From Prevotellaceae bacterium (GTDB lineage Bacteria > Bacteroidota > Bacteroidia > Bacteroidales > UBA932), in the NCBI GenBank assembly GCA_031270335.1, contig JAISXV010000035.1, positions 1 to 42,589 on the forward strand: a DNA stretch of 42,589 bases. Direction: 5' to 3'. A program made the translations under genes and the position numbers. Shown here piece by piece: positions 29,959-31,321 of the stretch. The notes under the pieces were generated by a model that was not told the DNA's origin, ran no database searches, and saw nothing but the letters and a program-made list of their open reading frames with translations. How positions within the stretch are numbered: the first letter of the stretch is position 1; the number at the start of each line of letters is the position of its first letter.

Positions 29959-29992
29959 TGTAACTAATTAAAATTTCTTTAAAATACCGGGT

Positions 29993-30000
29993 CAAAAGTA
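29993..30000 (-). promoter_or_regulatory. -7 promoter box TACTTTTG upstream of uxaB
   Basis: TAnnTTTG match 35 nt upstream of the start at 29958. Confidence 0.45.
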
Positions 30001-30209
30001 TGAAATATTTTGCAAACCGGTCATGAAAGAGAATCCGGTAGATTTGGTATTTCTGAAATACAAATGCCCGGAGCGTCCCGAAAACAACGCTGGTGATATT
30101 AAGAAAAGTAATAAACGTTTTATATCTGAATAACAGTAATTTGCAAGTCCGTTTTTCGTATAGATGTAAAATTATTTCTGTTTTTTGCGTAATAAACGGG
30201 ACAAATGAT

Positions 30210-30217
30210 TACCTTTG
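30210..30217 (+). promoter_or_regulatory. -7 promoter box TACCTTTG upstream of the 30291 gene
   Basis: TAnnTTTG match 74 nt upstream of the start. Confidence 0.4.
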
Positions 30218-30290
30218 CAAAAATATTTGGAATGAAAGTCATCGGATAAATAATTGATAAAATTTATAACACCAATATAGCTGCATAAAA

Positions 30291-31001
30291 ATGAAACAAC
30301 ATGAACAGGTTATAGAAGTTATGAGGCAAAATGGAGGCTTTGCCACACTTGGTTTTCTTAACAAAATTGTAGATGTATCGGATTGGAGGACGAAAACCCC
30401 ATTTGCATCCATTAGAAGAATAGTTCAAAACGACCGGGTTTTCTTTAAAATAAAACCCGGTCTTTGGGCTTTAAAAGAATCCAAACTTGAAATCTTGAAA
30501 AAGTTTGAACTACAAAATTCTCCCCAAAAAGAACAAGATTTCTCGCACTCATATTTTCAAGGTTTGTTACTCGAAATTGGGCATCTAAGAGGATATAATA
30601 CTTACATTCCGGCACAAGATAAAAACAAATTATTCCTGAATAAAACTTTAGGAAGTGTTTCTACTTTAAATACGATTCTTGATTTTAGCTATCAGCACAT
30701 TACTAAAAGAGCCCAAACTATTGATGTTATATGGTTTAACGAGAGAAATCTACCAAATTCCTTTTTTGAAGTCGAACATTCAACAGATATGCAAAATTCG
30801 CTTCTCAAATTTAATGACCTTCAAGATTTTTATTCAAAATTTTATATACTGAGCGCTATTGCAAGAAAAAGAGAATTTGAACAAAAAATTTCATATTCTG
30901 CATTTAAAGATATTAAAGATAGAGTCAAGTTTATCGACTACGAATTTGTTTCAGCTTTACATACTAAAAGTTTTGAATTCGAAAAATTAGGAAAATTATA
31001 A
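30291..31001 (+). CDS. hypothetical protein: N-terminal HARE-HTH-like winged helix plus a C-terminal possible PD-(D/E)XK-type nuclease core
   Basis: 236 aa. The N-terminus EQVIEVMRQNGGFATLGFLNKIV...IRRIVQNDRVFFKIKPGLWALKE fits the winged-helix pattern that ends in F-x-[RK]-x(2,3)-G-x-W-x-L. The C-terminus has HSYFQGLLLEIGHLRGY...IDVIWFNERNLPNSFFEVEHSTD (Asp, then 13 residues, then E-x-E-H). Confidence 0.55.
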   Translation: MKQHEQVIEVMRQNGGFATLGFLNKIVDVSDWRTKTPFASIRRIVQNDRVFFKIKPGLWALKESKLEILKKFELQNSPQKEQDFSHSYFQGLLLEIGHLRGYNTYIPAQDKNKLFLNKTLGSVSTLNTILDFSYQHITKRAQTIDVIWFNERNLPNSFFEVEHSTDMQNSLLKFNDLQDFYSKFYILSAIARKREFEQKISYSAFKDIKDRVKFIDYEFVSALHTKSFEFEKLGKL

Positions 31002-31004
31002 ATT

Positions 31005-31193
31005 ATGGAAATATTTAAAATTGAAATTCGGGAACTTTTGTCAAGAACAATTGAAATTCAGGCAAATAATATTGAAGACGCAATCACTATTGCAAACAAA
31101 ATGTACAAGAAAGAAGAAATTGTTTTGGACTACAGTGATTTGATGTTACAAGAAATAATCCCTTCTGATTTAATTGAAGAGAATAATTATTGA
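31005..31193 (+). CDS. DpnD/PcfM-like small protein
   Basis: 62 aa. MEIFKIEIRELLSRTIEIQANNIEDAITIANKMYKKEEIVLDYSDL matches my recollection of the DpnD/PcfM family pattern (F-K-V-x-I-x-E...V-E-A-x-[ST]-x-E-E-A...Y-x-x-E-E-I-V-L-D). Starts 3 nt after the upstream stop. Confidence 0.6.
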   Translation: MEIFKIEIRELLSRTIEIQANNIEDAITIANKMYKKEEIVLDYSDLMLQEIIPSDLIEENNY

Positions 31194-31258
31194 TTATCTC
31201 TATCTTGACAAAAAAGGTGCTGAAATTGGTTAAAGTTCTTTTTTTACAATATTTGTTA

Positions 31259-31266
31259 TAATTTTG
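31259..31266 (+). promoter_or_regulatory. -7 promoter box TAATTTTG upstream of the tdh-like gene
   Basis: TAnnTTTG match 56 nt upstream of 31322. A hairpin with a T-run lies between this box and the start codon. Confidence 0.35.
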
Positions 31267-31277
31267 CGCAAAATTTT

Positions 31278-31303
31278 AAACGTCTATTAGATGGCGTTTT
31301 TTT
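31278..31303 (+). terminator. hairpin plus T-run, either terminator of the two-gene unit or leader attenuator of tdh
   Basis: AAACGTC, an 8-nt loop, GGCGTTT, then TTTT. It lies 85 nt after the stop at 31193 and 19 nt before the tdh start. Confidence 0.4.
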
Positions 31304-31321
31304 ATATAACAAGTTGTATAA

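Follow-up and report, generated by a model that had tools for sequence, protein, structure and literature searches.

A nuclease-dpnD unit in a Prevotellaceae contig: probable reduced copy of a Dpn-like restriction-modification cassette

The stretch of DNA analysed here, 42,589 nucleotides of contig JAISXV010000035.1 (assembly GCA_031270335.1) from a Prevotellaceae bacterium and referred to throughout as the window, contains a two-gene unit that is probably a solitary and pared-down version of a mobile, horizontally spread 'Dpn-like' restriction-modification (R-M) cassette, equipped with a methylation-sensitive nuclease that is likely to cut GATC. The first gene of the unit (gene 1) encodes a winged-helix protein with a restriction-endonuclease-fold domain, and the second (gene 2) a small protein of the DpnD/PcfM family; the unit is a minimal remnant of the cassette, comprising an intact nuclease and the core of DpnD. 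An earlier reading of the window, the original prediction, had proposed a DpnI-type cassette in which the domain order of the large protein is reversed and which would act in modification-dependent (Type IIM/IV) restriction or in another defence or addiction function.

In its full form the cassette would consist of a DpnM/Dam-like D12 methylase, the nuclease, a small acidic open reading frame (ORF; often DpnD), sometimes an ORF of 71-73 amino acids, and an N6_N4 methylase. In the window copy both methylase genes would have been lost and DpnD deprived of its C-terminal extension, leaving a nuclease that is intact and under purifying selection. The winged helix of gene 1 is proposed to position the enzyme on DNA, and its NmeDI_C-type PD-(D/E)XK domain (E95, D145, E160-x-E162) to cut. 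Because members of the family are found in operons with intact Dam-like methylases, the target would be DNA that lacks Dam-like methylation, most likely unmethylated GATC, which would make gene 1 a functional analogue of DpnII, not of DpnI. To tolerate such an enzyme, the host would have to methylate GATC from a gene that is not linked to the unit, or else keep the nuclease inactive or silent. DpnD would be an accessory that travels 3' of the nucleases of GATC systems, both DpnI and the gene 1 family.

Methylase partners and the cassette frame

The genomic neighbourhoods of gene 1 homologues were surveyed using one genome per species, which gave 80 loci, 52-78% identical to gene 1, from Bacteroidota, Ignavibacteriota, Chloroflexota, Patescibacteria, Planctomycetota, Nitrospirota, Armatimonadota, Firmicutes and archaea; neighbouring ORFs were clustered and annotated with Pfam, and methylases were counted within 2.5 kb of gene 1. 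Two partners recur, a D12-class N6-adenine methylase located directly upstream of gene 1, often with overlapping stop and start codons, and an N6_N4 methylase located upstream or downstream. The best solved relative of the D12 partner is DpnM (2dpm, E = 3.8e-81), which methylates GATC in the DpnII system of pneumococci, followed by E. coli Dam and T4 Dam, and the partner also matches the NCBIfam model 'dam'. In nine species an intact D12 gene (FxGxG and DPPY) stands beside an intact gene 1 that bears the full set of signature residues described below. The two genes are 2-3 nucleotides apart or overlap in seven of the nine; at L078 the gap is 32 nucleotides, and at L085 the D12 gene lies 153 nucleotides downstream. 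Homologues 75% and 69% identical to the window protein are included in this group, and the nine loci have no further neighbour in common. Full cassettes, in which the D12 methylase, gene 1, a small ORF and the N6_N4 methylase follow one another, are present at L046, L067 and L078.

A nuclease dependent on Gm6ATC is incompatible with an adjacent DpnM-like methylase, and thus the gene 1 family is best read as a methylation-sensitive Type II nuclease, most likely a conventional one with specificity for GATC. It is these nine species, seven of them with tight operons, that tell against the modification-dependent reading originally put forward. The Type II reading agrees with the report that HARE-HTH domains occur in fusion with the restriction endonucleases of R-M systems that modify the N6 position of adenine (N6A; PMC4738411). 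Across 79 loci, 18 contain at least one full-length methylase, approximately 20 contain fragments only, and 42, including the window, have none within the distance surveyed. A nuclease adjoining its cognate methylase, as is expected of Type II R-M systems, is therefore seen in 18 of the 79 homologous loci and not in the 42.6-kb window, while the never methylase-linked, stand-alone state expected of Type IV enzymes does not describe a family in which a full-length methylase adjoins the nuclease gene at 23% of loci.

Comparison of the sequences indicates that DpnI-type and gene-1-type cassettes share one frame. Homologous versions of DpnD and of a short-form N6_N4 methylase are present in both types, between which the ORFs of 71-73 amino acids are 47-59% identical. 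In L001 and L009, the closest relatives of the window, an N-terminal relic of the D12 gene is followed by gene 1, DpnD, a 72-amino-acid ORF and the N6_N4 methylase; in L098 the order is a D12 gene split into two broken ORFs, DpnI, DpnD, a 71-amino-acid ORF and the N6_N4 methylase. L098 is one of two DpnI cassettes that retain D12 sequence, and in the other, L096, the D12 gene is truncated. It should be emphasized that methylase relics beside gene 1 prove nothing by themselves, because DpnI cassettes carry such relics too. The possibility that the 71-73-amino-acid ORF is the detached N terminus of a methylase was rejected, as it forms a conserved family of its own; the L001 copy, the sole copy scanned, had no match in Pfam.

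At a further group of loci (L021, L032, L049, L050, L061, L069, L076, L077, L079 and L084) an N-terminal fragment of an N6_N4 methylase, ~40-110 amino acids in length, is all that is left 5' of gene 1. DPPY is present in the ORFs inspected, and the fragments abut the start of gene 1 or lie within ~240 nucleotides of it, except at L079 (625 nucleotides, opposite strand). The pattern extends to such distant phyla as Patescibacteria, Nitrospirota, Elusimicrobiota and Caldisericota, and one possibility is that the fragments stem from deletions that keep the promoter and translational coupling. Proteins of the DUF6996, DUF6997 and DUF7226 families, which have no NCBIfam match, also recur near gene 1 (L015, L021, L026, L028, L032, L036, L038 and L039), downstream of it except at L028, where the protein is encoded upstream on the opposite strand.

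The nuclease, DpnD and the local unit

The winged helix and nuclease-like core that had been suspected in gene 1 are supported by structure prediction and profile searches. An AlphaFold2 model built with 68 diverse homologues had a predicted local distance difference test score (pLDDT) of 96.5 and a predicted template modelling score of 0.92. In Foldseek searches residues 1-71 of the model match forkhead-type winged helices with a probability of 0.98, which confirms the predicted winged-helix fold of the N terminus; the Pfam match of this region to HARE-HTH (PF05066), with E = 0.024, scores 15.5 bits and falls short of the cutoff of 25.9, and a homologue 78% identical to gene 1 is named 'HTH HARE-type domain-containing protein' in UniRef. 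Residues 78-236 have, in the model, the alpha-beta-beta-beta-alpha-beta order of the restriction-endonuclease fold. This C-terminal domain folded alone with a pLDDT of 95.1 and had no significant PDB neighbour in Foldseek, although its weak top matches (YaeQ, VC1899/Card1/Can2, MUS81, FAAP24 and Bax1) all have the restriction-endonuclease fold. Foldseek gave no significant neighbour for the full model any more than for the nuclease domain by itself, such that the closest enzyme to gene 1 could not be named, and solved structures searched with gene 1 as a single sequence or as a profile returned noise only.

The nuclease domain carries the tag PF27126 in the window protein and in all 120 homologues listed of 6,885; the assignment is a precomputed database tag, and the name NmeDI_C is taken from the neighbourhood tables. 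Membership is backed independently by the PADLOC 'Type II restriction enzyme' model REase_II (351 positions), positions 178-280 of which align to residues 86-183 of gene 1 with E = 2e-6. No match to PF04556 (DpnII/MboI) was detected in gene 1. E95, D145 and E160-x-E162 make up a candidate active site together with K173; the predicted positions of the acidic residues, in helix 1, where strand 2 begins and in strand 3, respectively, fit a variant of PD-(D/E)XK. The arrangement of E95, D145 and E160-x-E162 resembles the D...ExE of BamHI. Of 79 species-level homologues, 70 carry the signature H86, Q90, E95, D110, K111, D145, E160, E162 and K173 (HQEDKDEEK) without any change.

The proposal that gene 1 is a domain-swapped DpnI was rejected. 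The DpnI domains PF06044 and PF17726 have no match in gene 1, alignment of the gene 1 family profile with six DpnI proteins by hhalign gave a probability of 0.13%, the DpnI structures 4esj and 4kyw are not among the 50 Foldseek matches listed in either search (full model; nuclease domain), and the nuclease domain belongs to NmeDI_C.

The gene 1 family comprises ~6,900 proteins (6,885 found), spread over archaea and numerous phyla of bacteria; the phage collection searched contains no homologue. The homologues have a GC content of 25-31% even in hosts of 39-46%, and the ratio of nonsynonymous to synonymous substitution rates (dN/dS) is 0.04-0.11, with dS saturated. Gene 1 is thus under strong purifying selection, and the low GC content and dN/dS fit a functional gene that spreads horizontally. 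Distant plasmid relatives are annotated 'type II restriction endonuclease'. Among other relatives, P0128, P0135, P0196, P0203, P0220 and P0267 and the proteins of the plasmid loci L183 and L184 are longer (300-430 amino acids), with an NmeDI_C-like C terminus and other N-terminal parts; the plasmid examples carry the annotation 'type II restriction endonuclease' and are without an annotated adjacent methylase in a PLSDB gene table that is incomplete, and the plasmid neighbourhoods were uninformative. L182, on the haloarchaeal plasmid pSTJ001 of Halobacterium hubeiense (244995-245723), is a solitary full-length homologue, 49% identical and named 'hypothetical protein', with no annotated methylase nearby. 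At L035 (3229-4924) a 302-amino-acid paralogue, which matches the window protein with E = 1.5e-18, comes straight after a gene 1 homologue.

Gene 2 is a firm member of DpnD/PcfM, as had been predicted, because residues 4-44 match PF14207 with E = 1.7e-11 and a score of 44.4 bits, well above the cutoff of 25; all its homologues bear the same tag. Its nearest relative is the dpnD of a DpnI cassette, L089 (75% amino acid and 80.6% nucleotide identity), the DpnI of which matches PDB 4esj with E = 1.6e-91. Among nine DpnD genes sampled without reference to gene 1, seven lie behind a genuine DpnI (PF06044 and PF17726) and two behind a member of the gene 1 family. In the window, gene 2 lies 3' of an NmeDI_C-family nuclease, not of DpnI. 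The link to Dpn cassettes that was originally drawn therefore stands for the DpnD side of the unit, through L089 and the seven DpnD genes that follow DpnI; gene 1 shows no detectable homology to DpnI.

The expected co-location of gene 1 and gene 2 homologues recurs, in that an iterated hidden Markov model search placed a DpnD-like ORF directly 3' of gene 1 in 11 of 80 species, including the archaeon L059 and the Firmicute L072, but unrelated small ORFs are found there elsewhere. A small co-oriented ORF directly follows gene 1 in 60 of 79 loci, most commonly with a 4-nucleotide overlap and with a median isoelectric point (pI) of 4.65, and the slot is filled by at least seven unrelated families (DpnD, the 'MKKFIILTPEG...' family and clusters c4, c5, c7, c9 and c13). 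The pairing of gene 1 with DpnD is recurrent, not obligatory, because unrelated, mostly acidic small ORFs from at least six other families occupy the same slot in other loci. In L075 (6600-7694) the DpnD domain is fused to the N terminus of an intact N6_N4 methylase (DPPY, FAGSST), 0.9 kb downstream of a gene 1 homologue. Alignment of the window dpnD with long-form dpnD genes revealed a 17-nucleotide deletion that shifts the frame and leads to a stop at 31191-31193, with recognizable, decaying dpnD sequence continuing to ~31270; the core that remains has a dN/dS of 0.13-0.16. PADLOC gave no match for gene 2, and the literature searched on DpnD/PcfM function and on GATC methylation in Capnocytophaga yielded nothing usable.

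The ORFs of gene 1 and gene 2 lie where they had been placed, both on the + strand, and the 3-nucleotide spacer (TAA ATT ATG) is as described (Table 1). The predicted -7 box is present, as TACCTTTG matches the Bacteroidetes -7 consensus TAnnTTTG and has a TTTG 22 nucleotides upstream; the promoter is plausible but without statistical support, because a motif scan of the window found 46 copies of TAnnTTTG against 40 expected, and the motif is thus not rare. DNA comparison showed that the promoter stretch is not common to any homologous locus. The predicted hairpin and T-run were recovered by a terminator scan, which picked 31278-31299 as one of two sites in the window (0.5 expected), with a folding energy of -7 kcal/mol (z = -2.8). 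The unit is a GC trough, 26-33% against 44-47% in the flanking genes, in line with the check on local composition that had been suggested. At 31256-31279, inside the decayed dpnD remnant and 56 nucleotides 5' of the ATG of the tdh-like gene, lie the -7-box-like TAATTTTG and a palindrome matching at 12 of 12 nucleotides. The promoter of the tdh-like gene may thus be located in cassette-derived DNA, in which case the 'terminator' hairpin would be in the 5' leader of that gene.

Table 1. Features of the unit in the window and of related loci
Feature	Position or locus	Strand	Description
Candidate Bacteroidetes-type promoter	30184-30217	+	TTTG 30184-30187; -7 box TACCTTTG 30210-30217; 74 nt 5' of gene 1 ATG
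Gene 1, 236 aa	30291-31001	+	Predicted winged helix ~1-71 (HARE-HTH-like), long helix 78-99, C-terminal NmeDI_C-family restriction-endonuclease-fold domain
Gene 2, 62 aa, pI 4.2	31005-31193	+	DpnD/PcfM family; long-form dpnD shortened by 17-nt frameshifting deletion
Decayed out-of-frame 3' remnant of long-form dpnD	31194-31270	+	Frame 3 = IIDYLYLDKKGAEIG, compared with IIDYLYHDEEKHFDELG in intact long forms
Candidate intrinsic terminator	31278-31303	+	Hairpin (7 bp, 8-nt loop), then T-run
Intact D12 gene beside gene 1	L013, L022, L038, L039, L046, L047, L067, L078, L085		L039 = isolate, Ferruginibacter yonginensis CECT 8289
Conserved 71-73-aa ORF 3' of DpnD	L001:6888-7106, L005:6887-7108, L098:2167-2382		Both cassette types

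The remainder of the window is made up of housekeeping genes, such as GidA, PdxA, LpxC/FabZ, Lon and ATP synthase, and it contains no tRNA. A defence island was rejected; the PADLOC matches to BrxL, DolB and IetA look like cross-matches of Lon/AAA proteins. The predicted lack of a methyltransferase was upheld, as D12 and N6_N4 queries had no match in the window at E < 1e-4, and no methyltransferase family is among the 25 listed of the window's 66 Pfam families. Searches for methyltransferase remnants in the flanks (29959-30290 and 31194-31321) gave chance-level matches only, and those for terminal repeats or target duplications around the unit gave weak AT-rich matches only. Similarity of the unit to other loci at the DNA level is limited to 30273-31163. 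In a test for an empty site, 80 metagenomic relatives of the tdh-like gene (up to 77% identity) lacked the uxaB/mnmG synteny, and insertion was not demonstrable by this route.

Competing explanations

Several observations weigh against a solitary, methylation-sensitive, GATC-cutting enzyme. A classical restriction nuclease should be lethal to a host that has no protection, and the 42 methylase-free loci and the ~20 with fragments only, out of 79, are unusual for such an enzyme; the hosts of solitary copies may be protected by an unlinked Dam. The solitary copies resemble the stand-alone pattern that flags Type IV enzymes (PMC11037411). GATC as the target is argued from one property, the similarity of the D12 partner to DpnM/Dam. 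For the N6_N4 partner the nearest enzyme is CcrM (GANTC), with those named DpnA next, and a short form of this partner also adjoins true DpnI. The best Foldseek matches have E = 0.026 (full-length model) and 0.12 (nuclease domain), such that the active-site geometry has no close solved structure behind it. Depletion of GATC in the window is five-fold (34 copies against 191 +/- 12 expected, or 175 in the palindrome comparison), and, in host flanks taken together, GATC (0.55) ranks second among 4-mer palindromes for depletion. CTAG (0 against 27 expected) and GGCC (2 against 112) are, however, more depleted in the window than GATC, and CGCG is also rare (64 against 164). GATC avoidance was thus rejected as evidence of specificity, the effect being real but non-specific in a comparison without control genomes; it is compatible with a GATC-specific nuclease, and several restriction pressures, such as that of a GGCC-specific system, appear to act on the host lineage.

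It could be argued that gene 1 is a modification-dependent (Type IIM/IV) analogue of DpnI, in which the winged helix reads Gm6ATC and the enzyme works with DpnD and without a methylase. Most copies are indeed solitary or beside broken methylase genes only, gene 1 and DpnI take up one and the same position in the cassette, 5' of DpnD, and a role in reading modified bases has been proposed for HARE-HTH; in addition, prokaryotic winged-helix nuclease fusions are often dependent on N6-methyladenine (6mA), the rarity of an adjacent methylase being a published criterion (PMC11037411). Such an enzyme would, however, be suicidal in the nine species in which gene 1, with all its signature residues, and a DpnM-like methylase are both intact. 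The D12 gene is broken where a true DpnI fills the same frame, and gene 1 has no homology to DpnI or to its winged helix. We rank this explanation last and judge it very improbable. Intact D12 operons and numerous solitary copies would be reconciled if gene 1 were a Type IV-like nuclease directed at a modification unrelated to GATC methylation, such as modified cytosines, and in one published view HARE-HTH more likely senses cytosine modifications (PMC11037411). This is unlikely, as methylase-nuclease operons coupled stop to start across phyla are a hallmark of cognate R-M pairs, its relative NmeDI is a conventional Type II enzyme, and the reading of a modified base has no positive support.

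Survival without a methylase could also be explained by a toxin-antitoxin-like or abortive-infection module, in which the nuclease is a toxin and DpnD, or another small acidic protein, its inhibitor. The co-oriented 3' ORFs of 60 of 79 loci, with their 4-nucleotide overlaps and low pI (4.65 at the median and 4.2 for gene 2), and the constrained core of gene 2 (dN/dS 0.13-0.16) are what such a module might look like; a specific inhibitor would, however, hardly be drawn from at least seven unrelated families beside a very conserved nuclease, 19 of 79 loci have no ORF in the slot, DpnD is also found behind DpnI, to which gene 1 is unrelated, and in L075 as part of a methylase fusion, the window dpnD is partly decayed and gene 2 has no PADLOC match. 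We hold this to be less likely again than the recognition of an unrelated modification. That the window copy is a functionless relic, the remnant of a dead R-M system on its way to loss, would be in keeping with the missing methylases, the truncated dpnD and its decayed 3' remnant. Gene 1, in contrast, is full length with every conserved residue and has a dN/dS of 0.04-0.11, and solitary intact copies occur in dozens of species, implying selection for the nuclease alone, so that this explanation too has little to commend it and is placed just above the DpnI analogue. A reduced Dpn-like cassette with a methylation-sensitive nuclease is thus the explanation we prefer.

The local unit is in itself ordinary R-M debris. 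The architecture of HARE-HTH joined to a restriction nuclease in N6A systems, the NmeDI_C domain family and the DpnD family are already known; new with respect to the literature searched are the cassette frame held in common with DpnI, the integrity of the Dam gene tracking the type of nuclease, and the high share of solitary intact nucleases. The family to which gene 1 belongs is a strongly conserved one of ~6,900 proteins without a characterized member and has a predicted GATC target. DpnI and the gene-1-type nuclease interchange in one frame, the state of the Dam-like gene tracks which of the two is present, and this sharing extends the picture of the pneumococcal DpnI/DpnII cassettes to Bacteroidota and beyond. 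The ties of DpnD to two unrelated GATC-system nucleases, and once by fusion to a methylase, narrow the hypotheses on its function. A broader generalization, which we regard as speculative and on balance doubtful, is that winged-helix/NmeDI_C nucleases routinely outlive their own methylases, with intact solitary copies in approximately half of the carrier species, bacterial and archaeal. If true, it would imply 'free-riding' on resident Dam methylation or an unrecognized safety mechanism, for which the interchangeable small acidic proteins encoded downstream, DpnD and others, would be candidates; DpnD would in that case act as a general modulator of GATC-directed nucleases, of both DpnI and the gene 1 family. 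The locus also carries a caution, as a winged helix, a nuclease and no local methylase at a single locus are insufficient to infer modification dependence.

Comparison with known systems

The DpnI cassette of S. pneumoniae (dpnC, encoding DpnI, and dpnD) is similar to the window unit in having a nuclease of ~250 amino acids with a winged helix, dpnD directly 3' of it and no methylase (PMC4471560), and the nearest relatives of gene 2 sit in genuine DpnI cassettes. The two nucleases differ in that they have no detectable homology and an opposite domain order, and, whereas DpnI requires Gm6ATC, the gene 1 family coexists with Dam-like methylases. The likeness to the DpnII system (dpnM, dpnA and dpnB of S. 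pneumoniae) and to MboI-type two-methylase GATC systems lies in the DpnM-like D12 and N6_N4 methylases that flank the nuclease in L046, L067 and L078 and in the cutting of unmethylated GATC, which gene 1 would share. In contrast, the DpnII/MboI nuclease is unrelated to gene 1 and the window lacks both methylases; the order methylase, nuclease, small ORF, methylase of gene-1-type cassettes also differs from the DpnII/MboI-type order.

NmeDI of Neisseria meningitidis is a characterized Type II enzyme that recognizes RCCGGY and cleaves the DNA some distance away on either side of it, which points to a separable cleavage domain (PMC2095814). R.NmeDI and gene 1 have C-terminal nuclease domains in the same Pfam family, PF27126, and are of modular build, a recognition part being followed by the cleavage domain. 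Their similarity is otherwise remote, as R.NmeDI has 351 amino acids, another N-terminal part and a partner, M.NmeDI, that is a C5-cytosine methylase, while gene 1 has 236 amino acids, a HARE-HTH-like winged helix and, elsewhere, N6-adenine methylases as partners. The 6mA-dependent Type IV endonucleases with winged-helix fusions (Helbrecht et al. 2024, PMC11037411) likewise combine a winged helix with a nuclease and often stand alone, HARE-HTH and NmeDI_C fusions being outside the set tested in that study. An adjacent methylase accompanies 13% of those enzymes, compared with 23% (full-length) or 48% (at least a trace) of the gene 1 family.

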